63,998 nucleotides of DNA from a virus (taxonomy: Duplodnaviria; Caudoviricetes), in IMG/VR virus record IMGVR_UViG_3300033134_000083, positions 1-63,998 of that record, one strand, 5' to 3'. Below are positions 2,349 through 53,332 of this stretch, piece after piece. A program made the position numbers and the translations under genes. The number at the start of each line of letters is the position of its first letter. The first letter of the stretch is position 1. Below the pieces are notes generated by a model. It was not told the origin of the DNA. It made no database searches and saw only the letters and a list, made by a program, of their open reading frames with translations.

Positions 2349-2639
2349 TCATTTCTTTTTTCTCCTCATCAGTACGATGTACTTGCCTTTGAGCTTCTTC
2401 GTCAAATGGTAACCATGGCACCCGTACGGGCACCGGTACACAGAGCGAACATCGTCAGTCAAATACGCTGCCGCGTCTTCGATGCTGGCATGCCAATGCT
2501 TACCACCACACGGACGTGCTTCCCGCTTACGGCGACGTTTACGTCCACGATGTGCAGCCCGGCGGTGAGCCAGACAGCAATACACCGCATCAGGGTTCTG
2601 CGGAAAAAACAACCGGCCACAATGCCCACATACCTTCAT
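2349..2639 (-). CDS. basic zinc-binding hypothetical protein
   Basis: CxxC, YCC and YRCPYGCHGYHLT motifs; Arg/Lys-rich. Confidence 0.55.
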   Translation of the reverse strand: MKVCGHCGRLFFPQNPDAVYCCLAHRRAAHRGRKRRRKREARPCGGKHWHASIEDAAAYLTDDVRSVYRCPYGCHGYHLTKKLKGKYIVLMRRKKK

Positions 2640-3788
2640 TCCCGTTCCTTTAGCTAAATAGTACCGTTACCGCAGCCACCACAACCAGCGTTTACGGAAA
2701 CGGCTACACCCACACAGGGCGCATTCCTCACCAACCCGGTAGTGGTAGTGAGCCATCCAGCTATGACCACACCGGCACATCATGACGTTGACCGAAGTTC
2801 CGCACCGTCCGCGAATAGCTCACTTACTGTGATATGGCGCAAAGCGTTTATCTCGCTTACTGTCACGTCGGGTATAACACGTCTGGCGTAAGCACGAGTA
2901 CGCTTTGTCAGCTTGTCCCACGGCAACGTTCCCTCGGTAGCTGAAGCAGTAAGAAGCATAGTAACCAAGAAGCGCTGACGCGCGATGCTTCCTTTTGCGT
3001 AGCTCATGGCTGGTCCTCCTCGTATGCCATGTTCAGCTGCTGGCGTACCAGCTCATCTTCCTTGGTCCACCCGTTCTGCCGCCACACGTACGGCTTGAAC
3101 GGCATCCCGTTCCTGAAACCGCGAACCACTGAATGTCCAGTGATTGGCAAGTGTTCGTCGCCCGTGTGGCGTGCCAAACCGTCACGAGCTTCCGGTTCGT
3201 AGATACGTACGTCAATCTGTGGTGGAAGCGTCAACGGCTTCCCGTCCACTTTCCGCCACCGGTAGTGGCGCCACTCTTCTCTCATTGTCGTTTCCTATTC
3301 CCTTGAGCTTCTGCTCCGCAGCCAGTGCGCGCTGCTTCCAGTATTCACGCTCTTCGCGTGCTTCGGCTAGTTTTGTAGTGAGTTCGTCGTACGTCATGGG
3401 CCGAAACGTCACTTTCGTTCCTCCAGTTCACTGAGCGAAAACCATTGCTCCAGCTCTGCTGGTGTCCTCACGTCAGCGGTGTGCCATCCGTACTCGGACA
3501 CTCGCAGCCAATCGCCGGACTCCAGCAGGTGGATAACCTCCACCTGCCAGCGTCCGTCCTTCGTCATGTAGCTCATCGGAGTTCCATGCGGCCGAATCCA
3601 TGGCCGGGAATGTTGCTGCACCGGGGCCAGTGGTAACACTGGCTAATACGGTCACCGTTGTGGCACTTCACGAACTGCCTATCCGGCTCACACTTGCTGC
3701 ACCCATCTTCTTTGCCGGGGTGCCAGAACCCGTTGCTAGCTATGTGGCCAGCAGCGGGAACACCAGGCATGACTAGCTGCGGCTTCAT

Positions 3789-4001
3789 TCAGACCTCCAC
3801 TCCCTTTACTGCTGGGCGGATGGCGCTGCGCTTGACGGTAAAGTACTTGTCTCGGTTGTCGTCGTAGATAAGGACCTGGTCCTCGATGTGGGGGTATACC
3901 TCCACGACCCGGTAGATGACCGGGTAAGCTTGCTTGTCGTTGCGCTTCACGACCCGGTTACCGGGCTGGTACGTTGCTGCGGTATCGTTCCTCATGTACA
4001 T
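3789..4001 (-). CDS. small SH3-like hypothetical protein
   Basis: YQPGNRVV pattern; directly downstream of a repeated promoter motif; possible leaderless start at 3995. Confidence 0.5.
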   Translation of the reverse strand: MYMRNDTAATYQPGNRVVKRNDKQAYPVIYRVVEVYPHIEDQVLIYDDNRDKYFTVKRSAIRPAVKGVEV

Positions 4002-4031
4002 GTAAACAAGTTCTGCCCCCTGGTTATTTCC
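4002..4031 (-). promoter_or_regulatory. GGAAATAA-N16-GTTTAC promoter-like motif, copy 1
   Basis: Exact motif and spacing shared by four sites. Confidence 0.7.
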
Positions 4032-4056
4032 CAGAGGGCAGAACTGCCGACGCTGG

Positions 4057-5340
4057 TTACTTGGCCAGCAGCATCAGCTTGGCGTGAGCCTTCGACTTCA
4101 CGTCGTCGCTGGCACCCTCCAGAATGGCCGTAGCTCTCGCCGCAGCCATCTTGTCGCCCTTCACCGCAGGCACCAAGTCCAGCCACGCCCCGCTGGTCCG
4201 CCGCGTCACCTGATGGTCCAGGTAGTCAGTCACGGCCCGCTCGGCAGCGTAAGCAGTCAAGCCAACCTGCTCCTTCTCCTTGGCGACCAGCTCCAGAATC
4301 TGCTCGCTGCGCTTGGCCGCCTTAGCGACCTTCATCTTGCCAGCGTCTTCCTCGACGGGCCACAGGCTAGCCAGCAGTTCCTGCACCTGGTCGATGGTGA
4401 TGTCGGTGCGAGCCAGCCGAGTCTCCTCCTCGGCGAACTTGTCGTAGTACTTGAGCGACAAGCCCATCGTTCGGCGAGCCTCAGCTATCCGCTGGGTTGC
4501 GGTCTTGCAGTGCCTTACGCTCCACTGCGCGTAAGCATCCCGCATCGCAAACCGCTCCGTGTTTCCGCAAGCTATCCGCCACGGTGTGGCCACACAGCGG
4601 AACGGGCTGATGCCGTCGTGGCTGTTGATGACTGCCACGTACTTGCGCACCTCATCGTTGATACCCTCGGCGTCGATGATGACCGATTCGGGTAGCTGCA
4701 TCGACACGAACACCCGACGACCACCGTATAGAGCACCAGCGGTCTCCCAGATGGCGTCGTTGCTTTCGGTGAGGTCCTGCAAGAACTGGAACCCTTCCCG
4801 GTTCTGCACCGGAGTGTAGACGTTGCCGACCACACCCAGCGGAGCCCACGTGTCGTCCCGGACGGTGACGAACTTGCCCGGCACGTCCCGTATCTCACCA
4901 TCAGCGTAGTAGTGCACTGGCCGGGTTTCGACACCCCAGTTGATGCCACCCAAGTTCAGCACTTCGTCGATGTCGCTGACGCCTTCGGGGACGACGTTAC
5001 CCAGCGCATGCCACTCCGGCTGCCGCGTGTACAGTGCCGCTGTACCGGTGGAGGTGTCCAGGTTGCTTTCCGGCAGAATCAGCGGTATCTCCGCTGGCCG
5101 GGTAGCCCGCTGAACACTGAAAATCTCGTTCCGGTCCCACCCTTCCAGCACCAGGTACCGGTTGCCGTCCAGCATGCGAATCTTGCCATCGGCGATGTCC
5201 TGGTCCAGCTTCATGTCGATTTCCGCTTGCGCGGCACCGGAGTCGTACCCGGCTATCGCCGCCTGGTTTCGCTCCACGATGGCTCTGAGCTGGGCTATCT
5301 GCCCTTCCTTCTCGGCCTTGAACTGCTCGTTGACGTCCAC
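4057..5340 (-). CDS. DUF932 family phage/plasmid protein
   Basis: PEWHALG, LGVVGNVYTPVQN, WETAGALYGGRRVF, NSHDG and RIACGN motifs. Confidence 0.85.
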   Translation of the reverse strand: MDVNEQFKAEKEGQIAQLRAIVERNQAAIAGYDSGAAQAEIDMKLDQDIADGKIRMLDGNRYLVLEGWDRNEIFSVQRATRPAEIPLILPESNLDTSTGTAALYTRQPEWHALGNVVPEGVSDIDEVLNLGGINWGVETRPVHYYADGEIRDVPGKFVTVRDDTWAPLGVVGNVYTPVQNREGFQFLQDLTESNDAIWETAGALYGGRRVFVSMQLPESVIIDAEGINDEVRKYVAVINSHDGISPFRCVATPWRIACGNTERFAMRDAYAQWSVRHCKTATQRIAEARRTMGLSLKYYDKFAEEETRLARTDITIDQVQELLASLWPVEEDAGKMKVAKAAKRSEQILELVAKEKEQVGLTAYAAERAVTDYLDHQVTRRTSGAWLDLVPAVKGDKMAAARATAILEGASDDVKSKAHAKLMLLAK

Positions 5341-5391
5341 GTACGTTCCCTTCGATTCCCTGTGGCTAGCCCGGCTGAGCTAGCCAACTAC

Positions 5392-5421
5392 GTAAACACC
5401 TTAGCTACGTGGTTTATTTCC
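5392..5421 (-). promoter_or_regulatory. GGAAATAA-N16-GTTTAC promoter-like motif, copy 2
   Basis: Upstream of the DUF932 gene; exact spacing. Confidence 0.7.
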
Positions 5422-5430
5422 AGCAAGCAG

Positions 5431-5460
5431 AAAGGCCCCCGACCGAAGCCGAGGGCCTTT
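5431..5460 (-). terminator. intrinsic terminator-like hairpin
   Basis: aaaggccc...gggccttt inverted repeat between genes. Confidence 0.55.
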
Positions 5461-5477
5461 GGGGCGTGAGATGAGGC

Positions 5478-5666
5478 TTAGCTCAAGCACATCTCGGTGA
5501 AGTGCCGAATCACTCGCTGACCGCTATCCAGCTTGACCTTAAAGTAGCCGTAGCCGCCGTCCTCGACCAGCTTGCCGGTGACGTTGGAGCCAGCAAGAGT
5601 GACCGAGTCGCCGACCTTTAGAGTGCACTGCTTGGCTTGCTCAGCCAGCCTGTCGATGAGTCCCAT
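5478..5666 (-). CDS. small SH3-like hypothetical protein
   Basis: LKVGDSVTL...GYFKVKLDSG; purine-rich RBS before ATG 5666. Confidence 0.55.
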   Translation of the reverse strand: MGLIDRLAEQAKQCTLKVGDSVTLAGSNVTGKLVEDGGYGYFKVKLDSGQRVIRHFTEMCLS

Positions 5667-5683
5667 GTTCCCTGTTCCTTCCC

Positions 5684-6310
5684 TCACGTACATGTAAACG
5701 TGTTGGGGTGCTGGTTTATTTCCCTCAGGAAGCCCATCAGCTGGCTGCCGATGTACTCGGTGAACGCAGGGGGGATGGCTTGGCGAGCTTCGGTGTTGGT
5801 CATCCAGGTGCAACCCATCGCATCAGCGAAGGCCCGTTCACCCTTGTGCATGAACGGAAGCAGCGACCGGTTGCCTGAGCACTGACACGGTTGTATCAGC
5901 TCGTAGGCAGTCCAGTTGCCTCGCTGGAAGTCACGGTGGCGCTTCACCTTCAAGCCAAACTGGGTGCCGCACAGCCGGTAGTCAGCGCGCAGCCCAGCTT
6001 CCGGCACGTTTTCCACTACCCACGGCACCGAAACTACTGATAGCCGCTTCAGCATGGGCGTCAGTAGGTCTGAGTGGTCGTCGCGTGACCCTCGCCACGC
6101 TGTTACCCTCGCAAACCGCTGACAAGGCGGCGAAGCATGGATGGCATCGAAGCTATCCAGCGGGTACGTCATAGCATCGGCTTGAATGAACTCAAACGGG
6201 AAGTGTGGCTGCGGTGCTATGTCCACACCGACAACGGTGAAGCCAGCTTGACTGTAGCCCATTGCTGCGCCACCAGAACCACAGAACAAGTCCAGCAGGA
6301 GAAAAGTCAT
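5684..6310 (-). CDS. DNA cytosine-C5 methyltransferase (short phage type)
   Basis: DLFCGSGG (motif I), ASPPCQ (IV), VENV (VI), QAIPPAF C-terminus. Confidence 0.85.
   Translation of the reverse strand: MTFLLLDLFCGSGGAAMGYSQAGFTVVGVDIAPQPHFPFEFIQADAMTYPLDSFDAIHASPPCQRFARVTAWRGSRDDHSDLLTPMLKRLSVVSVPWVVENVPEAGLRADYRLCGTQFGLKVKRHRDFQRGNWTAYELIQPCQCSGNRSLLPFMHKGERAFADAMGCTWMTNTEARQAIPPAFTEYIGSQLMGFLREINQHPNTFTCT
5694..5723 (-). promoter_or_regulatory. GGAAATAA-N16-GTTTAC promoter-like motif, copy 3
   Basis: Exact motif and spacing. Confidence 0.7.
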
Positions 6311-6663
6311 GCACTGTCTACTTCCACGCTAGTAAGTGGATGACCTTGCGCGTCGTGTACGCCAACCATATCCTCCGTGACCATGACGCCTGCTGGGACG
6401 AGGTACTTGACGGACTTGCGGCTGCCACGTTGCTTATGGTTACTGCCCGCTTCCCGTAGTAGTCGGCCAAAAGCGGTTCCAGGGAAATACAACGTCCCGT
6501 CATCGCGCCGGTAGGAGCTTTTCTCCGCCTGCTCTCGGGGAGTTCCGTACCCAGTCGTTATAGCGCGGGTTGGCGTTTCCACTTCGTTTTCCTCAGTAAA
6601 GCGATGCATTAGCAGAGGGGAAATACCCTCCACTACAGCAGTAAAGGTTTTGATGTCTACCAA
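6307..6663 (-). pseudogene. C-terminally truncated phage RAMP/Cas7-like (Vipr-like) protein
   Basis: GISPLLMH and LYFPGTAFGRLLREAG resemble the N-terminal RAMP motifs; the ORF stops at VEVDSA with no Gly-rich loop; GGAGG precedes TTG 6663. Confidence 0.55.
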
Positions 6664-6682
6664 ATTTTTCCCTCCAGAAATA

Positions 6683-6812
6683 GCTGAAGTCACCAAAGAC
6701 ATCTTCGGTGACTTCAGCGCCGTTCCCTTGGATTGCCTTGGCCAGCATCGCCTTGCCTGGCCATGCCGTGCCCGGCCCCGCCAAGCCGTGCCCAGCCTGG
6801 CACCGCCTAGCC
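6683..6812 (-). ncRNA. GGC-NN pentamer array (16 units, 6735-6812) plus 3' 12-bp hairpin (6683-6718); VIPR-like guide RNA candidate
   Basis: Strict 5-nt periodicity; TATACT -10 box at 6823-6828 on the minus strand just upstream. Confidence 0.65.
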
Positions 6813-6845
6813 TGAAAAAACTAGTATACCCTGCGGCGGTGCGCG

Positions 6846-9701
6846 ATGCCTAAGGGCGGAGCAGTTCTAGCTGGATTGAGAGCAGCCCAATCCACCGCTG
6901 TTAACCCAACCATTCAGCCGTTGGGCGGCAGCGTTTCTCCGTTGGCTGCGCAGTATTCACAGTGGACACTCGGTCGCACACAGCAATCGACCGCTCTCCC
7001 GAGAGACCCAATTGAATTTTTGACTGGTGCCTTCGGCCCCCTGAGCCCCATCCAGCCCGTTGGTATCGACACTCCACCACCCGATGCGGAACGACCCGAA
7101 CCACGGCGCTGGCAGTACCCCGTCGGGTGGAACATGCCGGTTGGCATGCCCGGCACCGAAGGACTCAAACTAGCTGACTTCCAAACCCTGCGCACCTACG
7201 CTGAGGTGTACTCCGTCGCTAGAGCATGCATCCAGCTACGCAAAGACGAAATGCTCGGCATCGGCTGGGACATCGGCCCCACCGCTGACGCAGCCAAAGC
7301 TATGCGAGGCAGCAGCAGCGCCATGGCCGACTTTGGCAAACGCCGCGACGAAGCACTCAAGTTCTTCACCCAACCCGACCCCAACTACAACGACTTCACC
7401 AGCTGGTTCTCCGCAGCCCTGGAAGACATGTTCGTCATCGACGCGTTGTCGGTGTATTTGCATCCCACCCGCATCCCCGGCAAGGGCCTGTTTGGCACTG
7501 ACTTGGGCGGGTTGGACATTATCGACGGCAGCTCCGTCCGTCCACTGCTGGACCTACGGGGTGGTTCACCTAGCCCACCCAACCCCGCATACCAGATATA
7601 CCAGTACGGCATTCCCCGCGTTGACTTGATGACCATGCTAGCCGAACAAGACATTAAAGACTTGGGTAAACCGGTTGCGCAATACCGGGGCGACCAGCTT
7701 CTTTATCTGCCCCGATACCCGAGAACGTGGACGCCGTACGGGCAAGCCCCGTTGGAACGCTGCATCATCCCCGTTATCACGGGGTTGCGTAAGCAGCAGT
7801 ACTCCATGGATTACTACCTGGAAGGTTCCATTCCCGGCGTCTACATTTCCCCTGGCGACCCGAACATGACGCCAAACCAAATCCGTGAAGTTCAAGACAG
7901 CCTGAACGCTATCGCTGGTGACGTGGCGTACAAGCACAAGGTGTTGATGCTGCCCGCTAATAGCAAAGTGGAGCCGCAAAAACCACCAGAACTAGCCGAC
8001 CAGTCCGACGAAATCATCATGACTCAAGTATGCATGGCATACAACGTCATGCCGATGGAGCTAGGCATTTCGCCGAGGGTGAGCGCTACCCAATCAACGG
8101 GTGCAGCTAACCAGATGGCTAAAGCCTCGCAGGACATTCAGGAACGCAAGTCGCTTGGTCCTGACTTGCTATGGCTAAAGGCTGCCTTGTTCGACCGCAT
8201 ATTGCAGGACTTTTGCGGGCAAATGGACATGGAATGGAAATGGGATGGTTTGGAGGAAGATGAGGACGAACAAACCCTAACCACACTCCTTGTAGCCCAA
8301 ATCGGCGCTGGCCTGTCCTCCATTGACGAAGCACGCATTGAACTAGGTCGCCAGCCATGGGGCCTACCCATTACTAGCGACCCAGGCTGGGCGGGACAGA
8401 TGGGCTTCACACCACTAGGCCAAATCAGCCTCACAGGTGCACCAGAACCCGGAGTCGCCCCACCCACTCTTCCGCAGCCCGGTCAAGGTGGCCAGCCCGG
8501 TACCCCATTCTCTCCTGGTGGCACCACCGCAGGCCCCCCCTCAGGTGCGTCCCCACAGTCTCCTATGGCGCGTATACCCGCTGCCGGTGCAGCACCCCAG
8601 CAAGCTAACGCTGGACCGGCTACAGCTAAACCTACGCCGTTCCCTGGTGGTACCCCAGCTCATGCTGCTGCTCAAGCAATAGCTTCAGCCGAGCATGCCC
8701 ATCCCATTCCTAAAATGGCAGGCGAGCTGGCCGCTTCCACTCTGGCTAACGCTGGGACGGTGGACCCGCCTACCAATGGTAAGTATAAAGCGACTCTAAG
8801 TGAGCTAGATGCTCTACGCCGCCATCTGCACAAAGGACGCCAAATCAGCACCTGGGAACGTCGCCACATCCCCGGCTCCACCCTCGCTAGCATCAGCGAA
8901 GACCTCGCTAAGGGTTTGAGCATCGACCAAGCAGTGGACGTAGCCGCAGCGCTGCTACCCAAAGTAATCGAAGGAACCATACTCAAGGTCGGTCCCGAAG
9001 GGTTCATTCACGGCTATGTATGCGTACGCCCACCCTGCGGCAAGATAGGTGACGCAGTAGACCACTCGGTCCACGGCCCCGGCGTCGTCACCCACGTAGA
9101 CGACAACGGCACCATGCACGCCCGGTTCGCTGATGGCACCGAAGGAAAACTAGGCAAACCAAAAACATCCATGGAATCGGCAGTACGCCAGCGCCGCATC
9201 GACGCTGCCGTTGCCCAAGCTATGCACCCTCAAGGCCGGGGAGACGAAGCAGTACTGCCCTGGACTAGAGGCGCTGACCCAGAAGAATCCGCTCAGCGTT
9301 TGCAAGAAGCGACCGCTAAAGCACCACACGAACTAACCGACGAAGATGTACAAGGACTCACCTACGAAGACAGCCTGAAACTGCTAACTCACGTAGCACA
9401 CGGCTCTCACGAATACAGCGAAGAACGAATTGACAAAGCAGTGAACGACCTTCAGCAGCAAATGCACGAACTTAAGGACATGGCTCAGCGAGAGATAAAA
9501 GACGAGCATGACATTGAGCTGCTGAAAGCCACCAAACAGAAATTCTTCTGGCACACCGGCATGGTCCTCGGCGGAATTGCCGTAGGGCTAGCATCCATTC
9601 CACTCGCAGGCCTTCCCGCTATCGTTGCTCTAGTAAGCGGCGCGCTAGGAGCATTCCCTGGCCTCGGCATGGAACTCGTTGACCTCATTCGAAAGTGGTA
9701 A
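6846..9701 (+). CDS. portal protein with long C-terminal extension
   Basis: First gene of the virion operon; YGQAPLE, YYLEGSIP and SIDEARIELG portal-like motifs; Pro/Gly linker, extra modules and a hydrophobic C-terminus. Confidence 0.85.
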   Translation: MPKGGAVLAGLRAAQSTAVNPTIQPLGGSVSPLAAQYSQWTLGRTQQSTALPRDPIEFLTGAFGPLSPIQPVGIDTPPPDAERPEPRRWQYPVGWNMPVGMPGTEGLKLADFQTLRTYAEVYSVARACIQLRKDEMLGIGWDIGPTADAAKAMRGSSSAMADFGKRRDEALKFFTQPDPNYNDFTSWFSAALEDMFVIDALSVYLHPTRIPGKGLFGTDLGGLDIIDGSSVRPLLDLRGGSPSPPNPAYQIYQYGIPRVDLMTMLAEQDIKDLGKPVAQYRGDQLLYLPRYPRTWTPYGQAPLERCIIPVITGLRKQQYSMDYYLEGSIPGVYISPGDPNMTPNQIREVQDSLNAIAGDVAYKHKVLMLPANSKVEPQKPPELADQSDEIIMTQVCMAYNVMPMELGISPRVSATQSTGAANQMAKASQDIQERKSLGPDLLWLKAALFDRILQDFCGQMDMEWKWDGLEEDEDEQTLTTLLVAQIGAGLSSIDEARIELGRQPWGLPITSDPGWAGQMGFTPLGQISLTGAPEPGVAPPTLPQPGQGGQPGTPFSPGGTTAGPPSGASPQSPMARIPAAGAAPQQANAGPATAKPTPFPGGTPAHAAAQAIASAEHAHPIPKMAGELAASTLANAGTVDPPTNGKYKATLSELDALRRHLHKGRQISTWERRHIPGSTLASISEDLAKGLSIDQAVDVAAALLPKVIEGTILKVGPEGFIHGYVCVRPPCGKIGDAVDHSVHGPGVVTHVDDNGTMHARFADGTEGKLGKPKTSMESAVRQRRIDAAVAQAMHPQGRGDEAVLPWTRGADPEESAQRLQEATAKAPHELTDEDVQGLTYEDSLKLLTHVAHGSHEYSEERIDKAVNDLQQQMHELKDMAQREIKDEHDIELLKATKQKFFWHTGMVLGGIAVGLASIPLAGLPAIVALVSGALGAFPGLGMELVDLIRKW

Positions 9702-10863: not shown

Positions 10864-13800
10864 CTACTCCCACTACTCAGCAGCAGTCACCTCCGCAGCC
10901 CAGCGCTCTTGATGACCTCATCGCCCTGCTCCTGCTCACCAGCCCTGCTCTAGCAGCCTGGATAGCTACCCGCCGCAGCAGCGTCCGGAGCATGACCAAC
11001 ACCCGTCTAGCTCAGCTAGCAGCCGTTCTACGTGGCTTCCAGCAGTCAGCACTAGCCGGTGAACCAACCAATCCAGATGACCTGGAACACCAACTCAACG
11101 CTGTCCTAGCCGGTCCCGCTGTCCTCCCAGCCGACCAGCTACCCGAGCCAGGTTCCACGGGAAACACCTACCGTGGCCAGCCAGCTACCGGCCCAGCGCA
11201 AAGCTCCGCTGCTAACGTCGGGCAGACGGAAGTATCCGCTGCTATTGGTGCTGCCGCACATAACGTATACCGCAGCGACCCGGACGTGGACTACTCCGAA
11301 TGGCTAACCGCCGAGGACGAAAAAGTCTGCCCTATCTGTGTAGCTAACCAGGAAGCAGGCCCGGTTCCTATTGGCGCACCGTTTCCATCAGGGGTGCCGT
11401 TTCCACCGGCGCATGTGAACTGCCTACCGGGGGATGCCCTTGTATCGGCCCGTAGCCGTATCACGGGTGCGACGTCTCGGATATACGACGGTGAGCTGGT
11501 CTGCATCCGCACTCTGGCTGACAAGCTCCTTTCCGTCACCCCCAATCATCCGGTACTGACGGACCATGGCTGGATTGCGGCTGGTCTCCTGAAGAAAGGA
11601 GAAAACGTAGTTAGCGCTAGCGAGAGTGAGCGGAAACCGGGAATTGACTACGATAACGAGAACATGCCAGCCCGCATTCAGCAAATAGCGGAAGCGTTCT
11701 TGTGCTCGCGCAACGTGACTACCGCTGAAGTGCCATTGACCGCCGAAGATTTCCACGGCGACGGAGCTGGTAGTGAAGTCAGCATTATAGGGACCTATCG
11801 CAGTTTGCGTCCCGTACTCAAGACCGAGAGAGTTCAAGTAGGTGGCAAACAGCCGTTCCAATGCGGACACATGTACATCGCTCGGCGCGGCTTCACGGGT
11901 TTGCGCTCTAGCGATTCGCCGTTCCAGCGAGTCGGTATTTCCACGCCGAGCCACGTTAGCAGCAATAGTAAGAGCGCTACGCTCTTCGGCAGTAGTTTGC
12001 GCCATGCGGACGTACATGCTTTCGCTACGCCCTCTGGGCTTGACGTCGTTTTGCAGCAGGATGCGGCGGATAACGTTACGACTGACGCCAAAAGATTCAG
12101 CAAGCGCTTTTTCGCTCTCACCCTTGGTGTAGCGGTCGAGCAGGTTGCTGAGGTCTGGCGGGTCCCATTTAGCGGGCATGTGTATAACCTTGAGACAGTT
12201 GATGGGTGGTACATCGCCAATGGCATTGTAACTCACAACTGCCGGTGCACGACTACTCCCAGTGACTATCGTGCGGTGCCTGCGTTTGAAGCTCAGCAGG
12301 AAGCAATGCCCATGCGCCGTTTCGGCCTGCCGCATACTTCAGCGAGCCGGGAACGTGAACTGCAGAACGTGCCCAGTGAAACAACCGTGCTTCATGTAAC
12401 AGCAGAGCTAGAAAAAGGCGCCCCTGAGGGGAACATTTCCGGTGTCACCTTCGGTCCGCTTGCTAAATGCGTCTCCTGTGGCTGCGGTCTACCCCATGAT
12501 GACCACGGAGACGCCCGTAACATTACCCAGGAAGACGTTGAAGCCGCAGGAGCCGCAGTGGGTATAGCACCCGGCCAAGCCGCATCCAACATTGCTGACG
12601 CTTGGCGTGCGATGATGGTAGACGAAGCTGGCGCCAGGCAAGCGGACCAGGCATCCAAAGGCTGGCACGACGCGTGGCTGCATGAACTACGCGGCGGCCA
12701 CGGCGAATGGATTGGCGTTGGTGGTGACGTACCACACTTCGCTCAGCATGGCTCCACCCACGTCGAAGTAAAACCCCTCGTTAACGGCGACCACGAAGAC
12801 ATCAAACAGCGAGTTGGTAACCAGCTAAACCACCAAGCACAATGGGTGCCTAACCTTGCAGTCAGCTACCACGCTCACGTAACACCCGACAACGAACCCG
12901 ACTCTGGGCACCACCAATGGGGTTCCATCGTCATCCGCCAGCATGAACTATCAGACGACCAGCTACCCCACACCGTAGCCCACCAAATGGGTCACGCCGT
13001 TCACGACGCATTCCAAGGCGGTGCCGCCACCCAATACAACTCCAAACTGGGCGACATAAATCTGTGGCGCAAACTTTCTGCGGCTCTCGGCGTCAAAGAC
13101 CCGCCATTCACTCCTCGTAGCCACGGACGTGGTTACGTAACTCCTATGGTGTCCACCGACTGGGTGCGCCGCAACCGGGCCGCTATCCGGGACCAAGTCT
13201 CTAACCAAGCCACCGCTAACGTGGACGAGTTCATCGCCGAACTATGGGACCAGTTCACCACATCACCTAACCCTAGCCCCGTCGCTCAAATATTCGGCGA
13301 CTACGTGATGCAAAATTTGCCGTCACGCACCCACAACCCCCTTCTCGGGGAACTAGCCATGGCCGGTGGCAGCGTCGGCGGCCGCCGCAAATCCATGCAA
13401 GACTACTGGATAGCTAAAGACCTCCGCACTGCCTGGGAACACGAACTACGAGACCGTCACGGCAAATGGGCTAAAGCCGTTACCGAAGCACTGAAAACCG
13501 CACCCGACGCTCATGTAGCATCGGCTGATCGCAACGCTGAACATGTCGTGTTCACTATCGGCGACCCCAAGACCGCTGACCACGTTGTCACTATCGTGCC
13601 CGGCATGAACCCGCACTGGGAACATTTGCCCGCCGAAACAAAAGCAGCTTCCCGGATGAAAGCAGCCGTCGAAGCCAGAACCGGTAAAAAAGTCGCTGCC
13701 ATTCTCTGGGCTGGCTACAAACCACCGCAAAACTTTGCTTCGGCTAGCGACAAACTAACCGCGCAACACGCAGCTAAAGACCTTATGCGCTTTCAACGCC

Positions 13801-15371
13801 AGCTACGCAAAGACAACCCCAACGCCCACCGCACCGTTATCGGTCACTCCTACGGCAGCGTCGTCTCCGGTGAAGCAGCCCGCCACCTACCCAACTTCGC
13901 CGACGACCTCGTGCTCATTGGCTCACCCGGCACCTCGGCACACAAAGCAACCGAGTTCAACGTCCCCGACGGTCACGTATGGGTAGGAGCCCACTCCAAA
14001 GACCCCGTAGCTGGCGTATCCCGAGAACTACGCTTCCACTACGGCGGCAGCCCAGCCCGGCCAGCCTTTGGCGCAAAGGTATTCAACTCCGAAGTGCCAG
14101 GGGCTCAGTTCAGCACTCCGCTGCACAGCAGCGTTGGAGTGCTCGGACGAATGTGGCCCCAGACCAGCGAAGCTGACCCCGTAGCCATGTCAGCAGGAGC
14201 GCACTCCAGCTACTGGCGGCCCAACTCCAACGCCTGGAACGCAATGACTGCGATAGCATCAGGCGACCCTATTATCGAAACACCCGGCATTCCCGGCCAG
14301 CCACTCGTCGTAAAAGGCTGGCACGACGCCTGGCTACATGAGTTCCGTGACCCACGTGGCCACTGGGTGCACGAAGGACCACCACCAGCAGTACAGGACA
14401 TGGTCAAACACGGGTGGACGTTCCACGGCACCCCCGGTTCCCACCAGCACGCTAGTTTCCTATCCTCTGCTGCTGACCTAATGCGAAGCCAGCCACAGCT
14501 ACGTCCCCTAGCTGAGACGCTGCGCCGAGCATCAGCGGAGATGAACAAAAAACACCCCGACGTAGCCCACCAAGTACTCCTAGGTGCAGCTAAGCAAACA
14601 CACTTCGCAGCCCTGAAAACCGGTGACGTTAACTTGCGTCACGCAGCATTCGCGTTGCATTACCACGGCGACCTCCTAGACGACTTGCACCTCACCGGTC
14701 GCAGTGACTTGCCGGAAACTCGTGAAGCTGCGGATGCACGCCGCTCCCTGGAAGCCGACCTGAAGTCCGGCCAGCACGACGTTCAATACCCTGGCCATGG
14801 ACAAATGGGCGAAACGTCGTTCGTCCGGTTCAATAACGGTTCCCGGTGGGTGCGTAAAGGTGACGCAGCTATCGACCAAGACCGCGAAATTCTCTCCAGT
14901 CGGGTAGCGGATGCCCTCGGCGCTCGGGCACCGGAAGTTATCCCCGACTCATCATGGAACCCTACCGACAAACACCCCGTTGTCTGGGAGCCCATGCTGC
15001 CGCACCCTACCGCTATCGACTTGGAACGCGGCAAAGACTACGATCCCGACAAAGTGTTCTCCGGCCCTGAAGGTCAGCGAATTGGCGTTCTTGACAAAAT
15101 CATATCCAACCAAGACCGCAACGACGGAAACTGGCTCGTAGACAGTAACGGACTTCCTGTTCCTATCGACCACGGCCAAGCTTACTTTGACAACGACTAC
15201 GCCCCATCCAGCGAGTTTTCCACCAAACTAGACCCGACATCCATTTCGCCTGCGCAATGGGATGAGTGGGCAGGAAAACTCGGCGCTCTCAGCCCAGAGT
15301 TCTCCGCGCTCAACCGAGGAGACTGGTTTCAATCAATGATGCAGTCATTCCAAAGTCTGAGGCCATCATGA
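10860..15371 (+). CDS. MuF (phage head morphogenesis) polyprotein containing an intein and several effector domains
   Basis: WLTAEDEKVCPIC...PPAHVN|CRC MuF motif split by an intein; zincin-like, alpha/beta hydrolase (GHSYGS) and kinase-like (DRNDGN...IDHG) domains; frame is open from CTG 10860 (ORF track start is ATG 10992). Confidence 0.85.
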   Translation: MTTPTTQQQSPPQPSALDDLIALLLLTSPALAAWIATRRSSVRSMTNTRLAQLAAVLRGFQQSALAGEPTNPDDLEHQLNAVLAGPAVLPADQLPEPGSTGNTYRGQPATGPAQSSAANVGQTEVSAAIGAAAHNVYRSDPDVDYSEWLTAEDEKVCPICVANQEAGPVPIGAPFPSGVPFPPAHVNCLPGDALVSARSRITGATSRIYDGELVCIRTLADKLLSVTPNHPVLTDHGWIAAGLLKKGENVVSASESERKPGIDYDNENMPARIQQIAEAFLCSRNVTTAEVPLTAEDFHGDGAGSEVSIIGTYRSLRPVLKTERVQVGGKQPFQCGHMYIARRGFTGLRSSDSPFQRVGISTPSHVSSNSKSATLFGSSLRHADVHAFATPSGLDVVLQQDAADNVTTDAKRFSKRFFALTLGVAVEQVAEVWRVPFSGHVYNLETVDGWYIANGIVTHNCRCTTTPSDYRAVPAFEAQQEAMPMRRFGLPHTSASRERELQNVPSETTVLHVTAELEKGAPEGNISGVTFGPLAKCVSCGCGLPHDDHGDARNITQEDVEAAGAAVGIAPGQAASNIADAWRAMMVDEAGARQADQASKGWHDAWLHELRGGHGEWIGVGGDVPHFAQHGSTHVEVKPLVNGDHEDIKQRVGNQLNHQAQWVPNLAVSYHAHVTPDNEPDSGHHQWGSIVIRQHELSDDQLPHTVAHQMGHAVHDAFQGGAATQYNSKLGDINLWRKLSAALGVKDPPFTPRSHGRGYVTPMVSTDWVRRNRAAIRDQVSNQATANVDEFIAELWDQFTTSPNPSPVAQIFGDYVMQNLPSRTHNPLLGELAMAGGSVGGRRKSMQDYWIAKDLRTAWEHELRDRHGKWAKAVTEALKTAPDAHVASADRNAEHVVFTIGDPKTADHVVTIVPGMNPHWEHLPAETKAASRMKAAVEARTGKKVAAILWAGYKPPQNFASASDKLTAQHAAKDLMRFQRQLRKDNPNAHRTVIGHSYGSVVSGEAARHLPNFADDLVLIGSPGTSAHKATEFNVPDGHVWVGAHSKDPVAGVSRELRFHYGGSPARPAFGAKVFNSEVPGAQFSTPLHSSVGVLGRMWPQTSEADPVAMSAGAHSSYWRPNSNAWNAMTAIASGDPIIETPGIPGQPLVVKGWHDAWLHEFRDPRGHWVHEGPPPAVQDMVKHGWTFHGTPGSHQHASFLSSAADLMRSQPQLRPLAETLRRASAEMNKKHPDVAHQVLLGAAKQTHFAALKTGDVNLRHAAFALHYHGDLLDDLHLTGRSDLPETREAADARRSLEADLKSGQHDVQYPGHGQMGETSFVRFNNGSRWVRKGDAAIDQDREILSSRVADALGARAPEVIPDSSWNPTDKHPVVWEPMLPHPTAIDLERGKDYDPDKVFSGPEGQRIGVLDKIISNQDRNDGNWLVDSNGLPVPIDHGQAYFDNDYAPSSEFSTKLDPTSISPAQWDEWAGKLGALSPEFSALNRGDWFQSMMQSFQSLRPS
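11421..12239 (+). mobile_element. intein 1 (273 aa) in MuF
   Basis: CLPGD block A, VTPNHP block B, SGHVYNLET block F, THN|C block G; removal restores PAHVNCRC. Confidence 0.92.
11424..12179 (-). CDS. antisense HTH + Vsr/DUF559-like PD-(D/E)xK endonuclease inside intein 1 (251 aa)
   Basis: HTH (SEKALAESFGVSRNVIRRIL); SALERLF...Q.AIGPYNADF...VAVEIFGGQWH...LLNAGWHVL. Confidence 0.85.
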   Translation of the reverse strand: MPAKWDPPDLSNLLDRYTKGESEKALAESFGVSRNVIRRILLQNDVKPRGRSESMYVRMAQTTAEERSALTIAANVARRGNTDSLERRIARAQTREAAPSDVHVSALERLFATYLNSLGLEYGTQTAIGPYNADFTTSSVAVEIFGGQWHFSGSHVARAQERFRYLLNAGWHVLVIVVNSRFPLTLASANYVFSFLQETSRNPAMVRQYRMIGGDGKELVSQSADADQLTVVYPRRRTRDTATGRYKGIPR

Positions 15372-24307: not shown

Positions 24308-25492
24308 ATTCGTATTCTCTGGTCGTCTAATGCGCCCTTCGCAGCGACGGGGTATGGAACCCAAACTGCTACCTGGCTACCGAGGATTAAATCGCTTGGC
24401 CATGAAGTAATAGCTGTTGCTCCGCCGTCATTTGCTGGGTCGCCGTTGAACTGGAACGGTATAACGGTTCTTCCTGGGTGGCGGGACGGAATCGGTAACG
24501 ACATTCTGCTAGACCATTACCGTCGCAGCGAAGCCGACGTGCTCATCACGTTGTGCGACGCGTACATGCTGGCACCCGAGATGCTCAGCGAAATGAACGT
24601 AGCCCACTGGCTGCCAGTTGATTGCTACCCTATGAACTTCCGCGACCAGGCCAGCATGAACCAGACCGGTGCGTTGCCGATAGCTATGAGTCAGTTCGGC
24701 CGGGACCAGCTAAAATCAGCCGGGTTTAGTCCGCGTTACATTCCGCACGCTATCGACATTACAACATTCTCACCACCCGCTAACCATAAGAAGCAGCGGG
24801 AAAGCATCGGACTGAGCGACAACACGTTTGTCGTTGGCTTGAACGCTTACAACAAAGACGTAATGCGAAAAGCGTTTGGGGAGCAGATGCTGGCGTTTGC
24901 GGCGTTCCGCAAACGCCACCCTGACTCAATGCTGCTGGTTCACTCCGCTGTGGCTGAACCTACTGCCGTGGACTTGCAAGCCCTAGCTCATGCCTGCGGG
25001 ATAGAAAAAGCTATCCTATTCCCCGACCAGTACAGCTATGCAGTTGGCACGATGACTGCTGAGAACATGGCTTCCTGGTATGGAGCGCTGGACGTTCTCA
25101 CTAACTGCTCCTACGGCGAGGGTTTCGGTCTGCCCATCCTCGAAGCCCAAGCTACCGGCACCCCGGTTGTCGTCACTGACGCTTCGTCCATGACGGAGCT
25201 GTGCGGTAGTGGATGGCTAGTTCCCGGTGATAAATTCTGGGTTCCGGCTCACCGGGGCTGGTGGATGCGACCGGACGTGTCATCCATGACTGCTGCGTAT
25301 GAGTCCGCATGGCAAGCACGCGAAAACGGTACCATGCCCGCGTTGCGGGAAAAGGCCCGCCAGTTCGCCCTCAAATACGACGCCGACGTAGTACTCAAGG
25401 AATGCTTCGCTCCGGTACTGGACGAAATCCAGGGAAACCTTCCAGTCAAAGAAGGTGTCAGCAGTGGCATTCTCCCTGAAACGGTACCATGA
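24308..25492 (+). CDS. GT-B (family 4-like) glycosyltransferase
   Basis: RILWSSNAPFAATGYGTQT N-terminus and EGFGLPILEAQATGTPV signature; requires an ATT/ATA start. Confidence 0.85.
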   Translation: MRILWSSNAPFAATGYGTQTATWLPRIKSLGHEVIAVAPPSFAGSPLNWNGITVLPGWRDGIGNDILLDHYRRSEADVLITLCDAYMLAPEMLSEMNVAHWLPVDCYPMNFRDQASMNQTGALPIAMSQFGRDQLKSAGFSPRYIPHAIDITTFSPPANHKKQRESIGLSDNTFVVGLNAYNKDVMRKAFGEQMLAFAAFRKRHPDSMLLVHSAVAEPTAVDLQALAHACGIEKAILFPDQYSYAVGTMTAENMASWYGALDVLTNCSYGEGFGLPILEAQATGTPVVVTDASSMTELCGSGWLVPGDKFWVPAHRGWWMRPDVSSMTAAYESAWQARENGTMPALREKARQFALKYDADVVLKECFAPVLDEIQGNLPVKEGVSSGILPETVP

Positions 25493-26132
25493 CTTTTACA
25501 ATACCCTCGGCTTTAACCAGTCAAGTGCGTTTATCCAATGGACTATCAAGGAACACGAAGCAGCTATCCTAAGCGAAAACTGCGTCGGTGCTAAATCAGT
25601 AGTCTCAGTGGGAACGTTCGGCGGTCTTTCGGTAGCAATAATCCTGGATGCTATGGCAGACGATGGGATACATTACGGCATCGACCCGTTTTTCCCCAAG
25701 TATTGCGCGCAGGACAATTACCGAGATGTATACGACGCTACTGTCGCTCACTTTCGCCGCCCCGGTCAGCAGACCGTAACCTTTCCTGGGTTTGCTTCCA
25801 TCCCCGGCGAGGAGCTATCCCAAAACGCCAGTGACGGGGAGCCTCCCATTGAGTGGCATCAGCTAAAGCGCGTACCACCCGGCGTGGACGTGTGTTTCAT
25901 CGACGGTGACCATCACGACCCAGTGCCCCTGAATGACTTCCAGGAAGTGTGGCCACTAATTAAGCCCGGAGGCCGCGTCCTCCACCACGACATTTCCAAC
26001 TCGACGTGGGGACCACACGCTGTTTCGCTGCTGAACTACATAAGGGAACTACCGGACGCAGACCTCTGGACTGATACGTCAGGTGAAGACGGAATCGCTG
26101 TAGTAACCAAAAAGGACGTGACCGCTACTTGA
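25455..26132 (+). CDS. class I SAM-dependent methyltransferase (Methyltransf_24-like)
   Basis: VGTFGGLS, GIDPF, FIDGDH and IKPGG..LHHD motifs. Confidence 0.75.
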   Translation: MSAVAFSLKRYHDFYNTLGFNQSSAFIQWTIKEHEAAILSENCVGAKSVVSVGTFGGLSVAIILDAMADDGIHYGIDPFFPKYCAQDNYRDVYDATVAHFRRPGQQTVTFPGFASIPGEELSQNASDGEPPIEWHQLKRVPPGVDVCFIDGDHHDPVPLNDFQEVWPLIKPGGRVLHHDISNSTWGPHAVSLLNYIRELPDADLWTDTSGEDGIAVVTKKDVTAT

Positions 26133-26821
26133 GCGTTGCCATTGTCAGCACCATCTACGACAACTATGACGCACCGTACATTCCACCCGAGCAAGACATC
26201 GAGTGCGAATGGGTCATGGTCACCGACCGGCCTCGTAGCTGCGCACCGTGGCGAGTGGTAACCGAACCAAGGCCGCATCTGCCTCCCCGGCTGGCGGGTA
26301 AAGTGCCCAAGACGCATTCCCGGCATTACACCGATGCTGACGTGGTTATCTGGACTGACGCTAACGTGGAAGTCACAGCTCCAGATTTCGCGTCATGGTG
26401 CGTAGCTCAACTCGGTGACAACCCGCTGAAAGCGTACGTTGACCCAGGTCGCGCTACTGTCCACGAAGAAGCTGCAGCTTCAGCAGTGTCGCCACGTTTC
26501 CACGGCCAGCCGTGCGTCGACCAAGCCGACTTTTATGTGAAGAACGGTTTTCCACCCGACTTTGGCACGTGGTGGACTGGGCTAGTGATTTACGGGCCCA
26601 ACTGCCCGTATTTCGGCGACGAATGGCTGAGTGAAATCACCCGCTGGTCGCTGCAAGACCAGATAGCTATCGGCTACATGTTTTGGCAGTACGGCATAGA
26701 CCCCAAACTAGTGTCTATCAAACCGGACTGGACCCGTCCCGACAACGGTTACGGAGGCTGGCACGGCCGAGACGGCGTGCACGACAAGTTCCGCATGCAT
26801 AACCACCGGCATGACCTATGA
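26129..26821 (+). CDS. DUF616-like GT-A glycosyltransferase
   Basis: STIYDNYD, IWTDAN and QDQI motifs. Confidence 0.65.
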   Translation: MSVAIVSTIYDNYDAPYIPPEQDIECEWVMVTDRPRSCAPWRVVTEPRPHLPPRLAGKVPKTHSRHYTDADVVIWTDANVEVTAPDFASWCVAQLGDNPLKAYVDPGRATVHEEAAASAVSPRFHGQPCVDQADFYVKNGFPPDFGTWWTGLVIYGPNCPYFGDEWLSEITRWSLQDQIAIGYMFWQYGIDPKLVSIKPDWTRPDNGYGGWHGRDGVHDKFRMHNHRHDL

Positions 26822-27705
26822 AAGCACTCGTCACTGGCGACAAGGGTTTCATCGGCAGCCACGTTGCCAGTGAACTAAAATCCCGTGGCTACGAAGTGCA
26901 CGGCTACGACCTAGTTGACGACCGGGATGTGCGTAACCTACGTGGCGGCAGCCGCTACGACCTGATTATTCACTGCGCTGCCGTAGTCGGCGGACGACGG
27001 GTCATGGACTGGACCCCGCTGGAGCACGCAGTCAACCTGGCCATTGACGCGGCGTTGTTCCAGTACGCCCACCGTATTCGCGCTGGCCGCGTGGTGTACT
27101 TCTCTAGTTCCTGCGCATACCCCGCCATCTTGGGGGCTATCAACGGCCGGAAACTAGCCGAAGGCGACATCAACCTGGCTCAGCCACGGTGGCCGGACCA
27201 GCTTTACGGCTGGACCAAACTCACCGGGGAGCTACTCGCCCAAACAGCACGCGAAGCTGGCGTGCCTGTAAGCGTGGTACGGCCGTTCTCGGTGTACGGC
27301 CCACGTATGCGTGAAGGCTTCGCTGTCCGAGGCTTCCTGGAGCAGGTACAGCGCCGTAAAGACCCCGTCTCAGTTTGGGGTAACGCCGACCAGGTTAGGG
27401 ACTACATCCACGTAGCCGATGTAGCTAAGGCTGTAGCCACAGTAGCCGAGCAGCACATCGACGGCCCGGTCAATTTGGGCACTGGCGTTGGCACATCCCT
27501 AGCCGAACTAGTAGCCATGATGAGTGAAGCAGCAGGCTACGCTCCGACTGTGGAAGTGAACCGTGACATGCCCGCTGGTTACCCGTACCTCGTTGCGGAC
27601 GCCAAACTGCTGCACACGTTCTGCCCGCCGAGAATGGCGCTGGAAACCTACCTAGCTGAGGTGCTGGATGCTCGTCATGGTGCCGTCCAGGGAACGTCCC
27701 CGTAA
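26818..27705 (+). CDS. NAD-dependent epimerase/dehydratase
   Basis: VTGDKGFIG, SSSCAY, YGWTK and RDYIHVAD motifs. Confidence 0.9.
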   Translation: MKALVTGDKGFIGSHVASELKSRGYEVHGYDLVDDRDVRNLRGGSRYDLIIHCAAVVGGRRVMDWTPLEHAVNLAIDAALFQYAHRIRAGRVVYFSSSCAYPAILGAINGRKLAEGDINLAQPRWPDQLYGWTKLTGELLAQTAREAGVPVSVVRPFSVYGPRMREGFAVRGFLEQVQRRKDPVSVWGNADQVRDYIHVADVAKAVATVAEQHIDGPVNLGTGVGTSLAELVAMMSEAAGYAPTVEVNRDMPAGYPYLVADAKLLHTFCPPRMALETYLAEVLDARHGAVQGTSP

Positions 27706-28330
27706 CGTAGCCCGGTTCGCTCAGGCAGCCCAGCAAACCGCTACCACGGCTGACGTTGTGTTCATCTTTGATGAAGACGACCCGCTCCTAGCCGAATCCA
27801 TCAAAGCAGCAGGACCGTGGCGTTACGTCACCCAGCCACGCATGATTACCGTGCCTAAGGTTAACCACTTTGCTATGGCTAACTTGGACTACCCAGTGCT
27901 CATGTTCGCTGGCGACGACTGCATACCCCAAACCAAAAGCTGGGATGAACAACTAGCCGACGCTGCCGCAACTGGTTACGCCTACCCCAACGGACTAGGC
28001 CGCACCGACATACCAGAACACGTAGCTATCCGCAGTGACATAGTCGAAGCCTTGGGCTGGTTCATGCTGCCTGTTTTGTCCCACTACTACACGGACAACG
28101 CCTGGGCTGACCTAGGCAACGGCGCCAAATGCATTACGTACCTGTCTGACGTGGTTTTGGAGCACCGTAACCCGCTGTACCGCAAAGGCCCCAAAGACCA
28201 CGTCCTCAGGATGGCTGAACTACGCGGCGACGCCGACCGAGCTGCATACCAGCAATGGCACGACGACGGCTTTGCTGATGATTTGAAAACAGTGCAGCAG
28301 GTTACTGCCGGATCAAAACTTCAAGGATAG
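27668..28330 (+). CDS. GT-A (family 2-like) glycosyltransferase
   Basis: VPSRERP, FAGDD and HYYTDN motifs. Confidence 0.75.
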   Translation: MLVMVPSRERPRNVARFAQAAQQTATTADVVFIFDEDDPLLAESIKAAGPWRYVTQPRMITVPKVNHFAMANLDYPVLMFAGDDCIPQTKSWDEQLADAAATGYAYPNGLGRTDIPEHVAIRSDIVEALGWFMLPVLSHYYTDNAWADLGNGAKCITYLSDVVLEHRNPLYRKGPKDHVLRMAELRGDADRAAYQQWHDDGFADDLKTVQQVTAGSKLQG

Positions 28331-52650: not shown

Positions 52651-53332
52651 TCCGTTCCCCTTTTCCTACTTGGTAGCAATCTGGTGCCAATGCGAAAGGA
52701 TGTAGAAAATAGTGTCTATAGCTGGCGCAATAAGCCCCCAGATAATAGCGTGAAGTACGGTAACAAGAACTGGGCCACCAAGCAGCAAAGCTATCTTAAC
52801 CCCAATGCCAGCAGTTACGATGCGCTTTAGTTTCTCGTACCAGTCCCGTAGCATCGTTTCCCTTTCCCTAAAGGTTAGCTTAGCCCATTGCCGCCAGCGG
52901 CGCCGTCTTTTTCGCCAGCCCAGCGTGCGGCTTCTTGCACAGCAATCATAGTTTCGATGACGTGTTCGCGTAGCTCCGGGTCATCAAGTCCGCATGGAAC
53001 ACAGATGAGGAACTCGGTAAGCCCAGGATACGGGTTTGGCTGAGCCGAATCGCGGTAGACCGGCTGCTGGCAACGGCTGCATGCGTCCACAACAGCAGTA
53101 GCTACAGGTTTGCCGTTCATTTCCGCTACCCGTGGGCATATGCGAGCTACAACATCCTGTTCCGCGTCCACACTGTTCCCTTTCGAAAGCTTTAAGGCAA
53201 GGAGAGACCCCCTGAGCCGCACTACTAAGATGTTCAGTCCTTTCGCCAAGGCTTGCGTGCCCTGCCGGGCACACGTACGTCTCTCCCTGCAGGTGGCACA
53301 CTACTTAATCTTCGCCGTGTGCTAGGGCGGCG

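Follow-up and report, generated by a model that had tools for sequence, protein, structure and literature searches.

A probable VIPR-derived locus with a truncated vipr gene and a guide matching the portal gene of a sister phage in an uncultivated wetland phage

What can a phage do with a guide RNA gene when the effector gene beside it has lost its 3′ part? This question is raised by a locus just ahead of the portal gene in the IMG/VR record IMGVR_UViG_3300033134_000083, a stretch of 63,998 nucleotides (nt) from an uncultivated wetland virus of the Caudoviricetes. The whole stretch is called the window below. On its minus strand, a promoter-like site is followed by a tract of tandem pentamers, a hairpin, and an open reading frame (ORF) of 118 amino acids (aa). 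A preliminary description, made from the letters alone, had likened it to a phage system consisting of a RAMP-like protein and a pentameric guide RNA. This system, VIPR (Viral Interference Programmable Repeat), was described in 2026 in a discovery preprint (10.64898/2026.04.26.720920) and a structural preprint (10.64898/2026.04.26.720927). The isolates behind that description are mostly enterobacterial and Pseudomonas elements from NCBI, and the reference is the type II system of Escherichia phage SUSP1. The analysis reported here suggests that the locus is, in all likelihood, a VIPR cassette lying in an accessory island, now probably in the state of a solo vrRNA (a guide RNA kept in a genome without a working vipr gene of its own), and that it was built against a rival sister phage.

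Is the ORF really a vipr gene? As first described, it contains the GISPLLMH and LYFPG motifs, is 118 aa long and overlaps the start of a methyltransferase gene. Its TTG start codon at 6663 lies 6 nt after a GGAGGG sequence (6675..6670). The ORF, hereafter vipr′, has no match in Pfam, and in PHROGs it matches phrog_4652 alone (function unknown, E = 5e-4, profile positions 3-101 of 194). A tblastn search of 50,697 phage records with the ORF gave no match, and an IMG/VR scan for close relatives with the window's fragment gave 14 pattern matches, 0 of which were confirmed. Among 5.8 billion proteins, I found 117 homologues, which share 37-61% identity over matches limited to the span of the ORF; where a family member is matched along the entire ORF, the identity is 45-61%. 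Leaving aside the entry for the ORF itself and four short ones of 103-135 aa, the homologues are 176-226 aa long; one of the four, P0048 (111 aa), is a fragment, since it clusters with a 193-aa member. Alignment A1, which comprises 44 members of the family with the ORF of the window among them, has conserved motifs ..EVDSRPVVIPATKGRIMRHRPR.. and ..GDYRPEKGGPFGRF.. in its C-terminal half. Its profile matches the PDB chain 36pp_D, "SUSP1 Vipr protein", at E = 2.7e-13, with positions 1-188 aligned to chain residues 1-190. An AlphaFold (AF2) model of the full-length homologue P0002 (pLDDT 87.3, pTM 0.81) has type VII Cas7 and Csm3 as its top Foldseek matches (E from 4e-7 to 1e-5, TM about 0.5). 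Because of the SUSP1 Vipr profile match and the Cas7/Csm3-like model, the ORF family can be identified as Vipr, the RAMP protein of VIPR, in agreement with the earlier reading of the letters. In identity and anatomy, the locus is almost certainly VIPR.

The arrangement of the relatives points the same way. I counted the best 80 of 197 confirmed IMG/VR loci with a vipr homologue, taking an array as adjacent when at least 6 of 8 consecutive YNNGG units lie on the same strand within 400 nt of the homologue. The expectation that full-length homologues of about 200 aa are accompanied by pentamer tracts was borne out: 75 of the 80 loci have such an array, upstream only in 15 (as in the window), downstream only in 39, and on both sides in 21. 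Five loci have no adjacent array, and one of these ends at the vipr homologue. The 80 loci contain 81 vipr ORFs, one locus having two. When antisense ORF artefacts overlapping vipr are excluded, the commonest ORF family among the neighbours is present at 16 of the 80 loci. Since no neighbour is found in more than that, the clade looks like a set of stand-alone vipr genes with arrays and with no conserved vap gene. The discovery preprint (10.64898/2026.04.26.720920) describes 667 systems in seven types with a vap gene in types II-VII, and it mentions stand-alone vipr genes. As a separate observation, one locus (L073, IMGVR_UViG_3300012971_000018) has 13 separate YNNGG arrays within 8.5 kb; its vipr homologue lies at 4001..4537, at a distance of kilobases from several of the arrays.

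The pentamer tract of the window consists of 18 in-phase units of the YNNGG type at 6815..6726 on the minus strand. Units 1-12 read TCAGG CTAGG CGGTG CCAGG CTGGG CACGG CTTGG CGGGG CCGGG CACGG CATGG CCAGG, and units 13-18 read CAAGG CGATG CTGGC CAAGG CAATC CAAGG. The preliminary description had read the same sequence in another register; the sequence stands, but the array extends beyond what had been listed, by one unit at its 5′ end and by two at its 3′ end. Overall, 14 of the 18 units fit YNNGG, and the best stretch has 11 of 12 consecutive fitting units. In first-order Markov simulations of the window (n = 100, both strands), there were never more than 6 of 12. The array is unique in the window, where the only other stretch reaching 6 of 12 is at 33071..33012. 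Among the first twelve units, 11 have an intact GG pair, while TG replaces GG in unit 3. A VIPR vrRNA is recognized by 9-16 YNNGG units with a conserved GGY and a variable NN beside vipr, and the window array has these properties.

The array also has the surroundings expected of a gene. The TATACT box (6828..6823, minus strand), previously taken as a promoter, is part of the sigma-70-like site at 6852..6823. This site has 9 of 12 matches and is the sole one on either strand of 6200..7000 (shuffled sequences have 0.2 on average). A 7-nt spacer (AGTTTTT) separates the box from repeat unit 1. As the -10 box ends 7 nt upstream, the vrRNA would start at or just before unit 1. On the other side, a 7-nt linker separates the array from a hairpin, whose stem is longer than the 12 bp first reported (Table 1) and which looks like an intrinsic terminator. 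A transcript model of 162 nt folds with z = -7.3, and 0 of 200 shuffled sequences fold equally well. A search of 6200..7000 against Rfam gave nothing meaningful and no hammerhead ribozyme. Among the 80 homologous viral loci, none of them a close relative, no tail resembles this hairpin. In loci L021 and L023, the array upstream of vipr is followed by a conserved hairpin and a possible second pairing (..GGTGCAG..hairpin..TGCACC..), and these predicted pairings suggest that tail structures are clade-specific, unlike the simple hairpin of the window. The 3′ ends of the arrays in homologous loci have recurrent AA-rich terminal units (..GGCAAGGCAAGG). Units 13-18 of the window lie outside the guide and probably belong to a constant 3′ region.

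What is the guide directed at? The NN dinucleotides were converted to the published pattern, in which one nucleotide is skipped after each pair, and this gapped pattern was searched as had been proposed beforehand. When metagenomes were scanned for the 18 fixed bases of units 2-10, seven loci (L097-L103) came up. One of them, contig L099 (3,087 b), matches units 1-12 at 24 of 24 positions (2731..2765) and units 13-18 at 0 of 12. The guide can thus be taken as 12 units long, since the match is complete for units 1-12 and nil beyond. The site lies in frame in the N-terminal region of a portal protein, ..AAQYGQWTLGRTIQSTALPRDP.., whose counterpart in the window is ..AAQYSQWTLGRTQQSTALPRDP.., and the skipped bases are the wobble positions of the codons. 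Skips of 0, 2, or 3 nt gave at most 15 matches, the reversed guide gave 14, and 500 shuffled guides gave at most 17 of 24. The portal N-terminal regions of L099 and the window share 78% nucleotide identity and 139 of 153 aa, with a one-codon indel. The other six loci (L097, L098, and L100-L103) were rejected as targets, having no matching reading frame and having stop codons in the wobble frame. Among these, L101 (1116..) matches 22 of 24 positions and L100 (..571) 21 of 24. Both are soil-metagenome contigs, and the L100 site sits among spurious-looking ORFs. These two were judged to be chance extensions of the 18-base pattern, a non-coding target being the less likely reading; the probability of at least 5 of the 8 extra bases matching is about 0.03 per match. 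An IMG/VR scan with units 4-13, which gave 0 matches, included unit 13 and was therefore blind to the L099 target.

How much of the effector is left? When six full-length homologues were compared with the window by tblastn, only residues 1-114/118 aligned, at 6654..6313, and there was no other vipr match in the window at E < 0.02. A weak match of P0004 at 53034..53171 (E = 0.022) was rejected, being unsupported by a profile search of the record. This profile search, over all 63,998 b, found a single partial vipr copy covering positions 2-118 of 195. Homology runs up to ..EVDS, residue 114 of about 190, and the ORF ends with ..EVDS-A-stop. Thus, the tblastn search, the alignment, and the profile search all agree with the earlier view that the gene is truncated. 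Reading through the TGA codon gives no Vipr-like continuation in frame. In alignment A1, the lost part contains ..RPVVIPATKGRIMRHRPR.. and ..GDYRPEKGGPFGRF.., which align to R138 (thumb) and D177/W178/R179 (G-loop) of SUSP1 Vipr; the RHRPR thumb motif and the GDYRPEKGGPFGRF loop are absent from the window's copy. On the P0002 model, the break maps inside the first strand of the thumb hairpin. Missing from there on are the second strand of the thumb, one more core strand, helix 2, the glycine-rich loop, and the final strand. The fragment still has the counterpart of SUSP1 H17 as well as the helix-1 and bundle regions. As the structural preprint reports, the R138A or D177A change abolishes silencing by SUSP1 Vipr (10.64898/2026.04.26.720927). 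Because these essential residues sit in the lost part, the effector of the phage that carries the locus (the carrier) appears to be dead, and the window's protein is very probably non-functional as a Vipr on its own. Since the RAMP architecture (RRM core, thumb, and glycine-rich loop) is incomplete, the locus should be regarded as derived from VIPR and not as a complete system. What remains of the gene is little changed: vipr′ agrees with the family in 30 of the 32 columns with a conservation of 90% or more, one exception being the junction residue. Its root-to-tip distance is 1.17, where the median is 1.02.

Table 1. Features of the locus and its neighbourhood (positions in the window)
Feature	Positions	Strand	Remarks
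Promoter-like site	6823..6852	-	TAGGCA-18 nt-TATACT; sigma-70-like; overlaps first codons of the divergent portal gene
vrRNA guide region, 12 units	6756..6815	-	NN code CA TA GG CA TG AC TT GG CG AC AT CA
Six partly degenerate pentamers	6726..6755	-	0/12 NN match to the L099 target past unit 12
3′ tail hairpin	6683..6718	-	16-bp stem, 4-nt loop, then UAUUUCU
vipr′	6307..6663	-	5′ 60% of a Vipr (RAMP) gene; TTG start, 118 aa
C5 cytosine DNA methyltransferase gene	5684..6310	-	208 aa; PF00145 E 5.9e-7; phrog_363 E 3.9e-34
DUF932 gene	4057..5340		Inside the island
Accessory island	3789..6845		3.06 kb; 70-aa ORF, DUF932 gene, small ORF, methyltransferase gene, vipr′, vrRNA gene
Portal gene	6846..9701	+	951 aa; PF04860; phrog_2662 E 1.4e-46; head to head with the vrRNA gene
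Own-portal site homologous to the vrRNA target	6951..6985	+	Codons 36-47, QYSQWTLGRTQQ; 19/24 NN, skips on wobble

The lost 3′ 40% of vipr has been replaced. The methyltransferase gene stands in its place, and the TGA of vipr′ overlaps the ATG of this gene as ATGA (6310..6307). Both belong to the accessory island, which lies between a leftward operon and the portal gene and has the portal start codon as its right edge. Contig L099 is collinear with the window on both flanks of the island and has 122 nt (2507..2628) at its place. At the DNA level, the methyltransferase gene comes nearest to short stretches, at 71-84% nucleotide identity, of methyltransferase genes of Mycobacterium, Streptomyces, and Gordonia phages, which is a weak, sequence-based hint of an actinobacterial host. 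The G+C content of the window is 57%.

As had been noted, the locus is head to head with the portal gene, whose start, at 6846 on the plus strand, is 30 nt away from repeat unit 1. Upstream of the portal ATG, neither an obvious ribosome-binding site nor a plus-strand promoter-like site is present, and the sole sequence there is the antisense of the vrRNA gene. The portal gene of L099 starts with TTG after GGAGG. In the window's portal protein, the match to the portal domain extends to about residue 507, and the remainder is an extension rich in Pro, Ala, and Gly. Farther on in the structural region, a head-associated ORF (10992..15371, 1,459 aa) has a head-protein match at residues 70-375 only. 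Sugar-modifying genes also lie within this region, at 24446..28330: two are glycosyltransferase-like (phrog_2170 and phrog_14945) and one is nucleotide-sugar epimerase-like (phrog_540).

Is the guide, then, aimed at the carrier itself? The site in the carrier's own portal gene is the best 1-nt-skip match in the window, it has the wobble register, and among guides with shuffled unit order only 1 in 300 reaches 19. From this one might think of autoregulation, in which the vrRNA is aimed at the own portal gene and late operon, 136 nt away, and times late expression. Against this, the own match of 19 of 24 is explained by homology to the true 24-of-24 target in L099. A score of 19 of 24 (79%) is also below the 80% target cut-off of the discovery preprint, whose authors, in its available text, report no self-targeting matches (10.64898/2026.04.26.720920), and the effector is truncated. 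Autoregulation therefore seems very improbable.

A cassette built against the sister phage fits these observations better and would have worked as follows. In the ancestral cassette, the vrRNA would have been made from at or just before unit 1 and coated by twelve Vipr protomers. By pairing with the template strand at codons 36-47 of the portal gene of the rival, the filament would block transcription of this gene and of the rival's late operon during co-infection or superinfection. The carrier's portal gene differs at 5 of 24 coded positions. In the present genome, the carrier's own effector should be unable to form the RNA-binding pocket, and the guide would either be idle or be loaded on a Vipr from another source, be it a rival phage, a prophage, or a gene copy that the record does not cover. 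I would give continued use of the guide, with Vipr supplied in trans, a little under an even chance. A bolder version makes the phage the bearer of a guide-only weapon, which turns the Vipr of the rival or of a prophage on the rival's portal gene while the own portal gene escapes by its 5 mismatches of 24, and in which the 118-aa stub may be retained as well; this is unlikely. If true, it would be a natural case that shows what number of NN mismatches is enough for self/non-self discrimination by VIPR, and it would place the guide-only strategy outside the SUSP1 family.

The locus may instead be a fresh relic: the methyltransferase gene recently replaced the 3′ end of vipr, and the fragment and the vrRNA are inactive but have not yet decayed. 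I would put the probability of this explanation somewhat below one half. The retention of conserved columns in vipr′ and the lack of excess divergence are expected soon after a break, no source of Vipr is found in the record or in related phages, and the island, being absent from L099, is dispensable. On the other hand, the guide is perfect against an extant target, and the promoter-like site, the GG pairs of the guide units other than that of unit 3, and the tail hairpin are all intact. Moreover, solo vrRNAs are reported, in a further preprint, to be maintained and active in other phages and satellites (10.64898/2026.10.15.759431). A set of results nevertheless weighs against an anti-rival cassette whose guide is still at work. 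The undecayed state of vipr′ would be expected if the truncation is very recent, and the intact guide would then be uninformative about present function; the fragment could also itself be under selection. At codon positions 1 and 2, divergence between the two portal genes is 5/24 in the target and 29/282 in the rest of the portal N-terminal region (Fisher p = 0.11). The difference is not significant and gives no statistical indication that the carrier's own site has escaped. The L099-type target is known from a single 3-kb contig. A search for further copies with units 3-12 gave 0 in IMG/VR, and in 185,579 species genomes neither units 2-11 nor units 1-10 gave any, and therefore no clue to a host or prophage. 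No RNA sequencing run is listed as containing the array stretch. No vipr or array was found in 15 portal-related IMG/VR loci (31-61% portal identity, 3-kb flanks) or in five whole related contigs, and no Vipr donor was identified. Together with the absence from the L099 position, this indicates that the cassette is an acquired accessory of the window phage. Finally, a full-length vipr gene may exist elsewhere in the phage, the record being about 77% complete, and the contigs listed for three wetland DNA runs (X1-X3) do not cover 6180..6467 and hence not the junction.

These last two points lead to further explanations. A complete system, in which a second full-length vipr in the missing roughly 23% of the genome serves the vrRNA, would accord with the linear form of this IMG/VR contig, its CheckV completeness of 77%, and the one homologous locus in 80 with two vipr ORFs; but arrays lie directly beside vipr in 75 of the 80 loci, second copies are rare, and no match to the C-terminal half of Vipr exists within the 64 kb. 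I consider it improbable. An assembly chimera, in which vipr and the methyltransferase gene were misjoined and the natural phage has an intact vipr, could be suspected from the gap in the X1-X3 contigs. However, the identical 118-aa ORF (P0119), including its stop context, is present on a separately assembled contig of 14.8 kb, which argues against an artefact at the junction, and the join yields a clean ATGA gene overlap; a misjoin is hardly credible. The remaining question is whether the 118-aa stub does something by itself. It may be kept to poison rival filaments, by capping the Vipr filament of a rival in a dominant-negative way, or to drive methyltransferase translation, as a leader ORF acting through the ATGA. 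All 118 codons are open with the family-conserved residues kept, the stop overlaps the methyltransferase start, and the retained H17 equivalent, helix-1, and bundle regions are parts that, as described for SUSP1 Vipr, contact RNA and DNA. Yet, as judged from the model, the stub is without three core strands, helix 2, and the G-loop of the RRM fold, which makes stable folding doubtful, and no other naturally truncated copy was found among the homologues, P0048 being a fragment of a 193-aa protein. A function of the fragment is thus very unlikely.

In summary, the locus, probably an anti-rival cassette in a solo-vrRNA state, extends the VIPR architecture and the 1-nt-skip code to a distant Vipr clade of an uncultivated wetland phage. 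The pair of guide and target (24 of 24), with the near-self control (19 of 24) in a homologous portal gene, is a natural test of mismatch tolerance. The effector was lost by partial gene replacement and not by clean deletion. A structural gene of a sister phage as target is not reported in the available text of the VIPR preprints. The picture of the VIPR mechanism is left unchanged by this locus.

How does the locus compare with known systems? It resembles VIPR of SUSP1 in being phage-borne and in having a small RAMP protein, tandem YNNGG repeats with variable NN, and a predicted structured 3′ tail. The 12 units of the guide equal the count in the vrRNA of SUSP1 seen by cryo-electron microscopy, as given in the structural preprint (10.64898/2026.04.26.720927). 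As described for VIPR, the guide follows the 1-nt-skip rule with the skips on wobble positions, and its predicted target is a rival phage. It differs from SUSP1 in that vipr breaks off at about 60% of its length. Its clade is distant (similarity is at the profile level only) and has no conserved vap gene, and its tail is a simple hairpin. It also differs in its target, the portal gene; the word "portal" is absent from the main text of the discovery preprint (10.64898/2026.04.26.720920).

The full-length Vipr family is similar in fold to the Cas7/Csm3 backbone proteins of class 1 CRISPR-Cas systems, and the RRM core, thumb, and G-loop are described, in the structural preprint, as binding the guide RNA as a filament (10.64898/2026.04.26.720927). 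Unlike CRISPR-Cas, the window locus lacks a CRISPR array, a spacer-repeat structure, and any other cas gene, and its guide is read discontinuously. The pentamer array is the only repeat, and the neighbours are the methyltransferase, DUF932, and portal genes. As there is no repeat-spacer array or cas gene beside the RAMP gene, the locus is not a member of CRISPR-Cas. Virus-borne mini-CRISPR arrays reportedly act in interviral conflict. By analogy, they may be likened to the window locus as virus guides without an effector that are aimed at close relatives, although guide chemistry and effector family differ.

The closest parallel is with solo vrRNAs, which, in a third preprint, are described from satellites, with experimental support, and from 346 vipr-null phages, as genomic precedent (10.64898/2026.10.15.759431). 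Like these phages, the window keeps a vrRNA and has no working vipr of its own in 64 kb of a record that is 77% complete; the predicted target is a rival mobile element, and the self match is below the non-self match. The published solo phages are SUSP1-like phages of Enterobacteriaceae, with a clean deletion of vipr and vap1 in the same 1.1-1.4-kb segment (10.64898/2026.10.15.759431), whereas in the window the loss is partial, affecting only the 3′ 40% of vipr, which is replaced by a methyltransferase gene. The window phage is also an uncultivated wetland virus with a Vipr of another clade and no known Vipr donor. While the published solo targets are vipr genes, other vrRNAs, satellites, and REP decoys, the guide of the window matches a structural gene of a sister phage.

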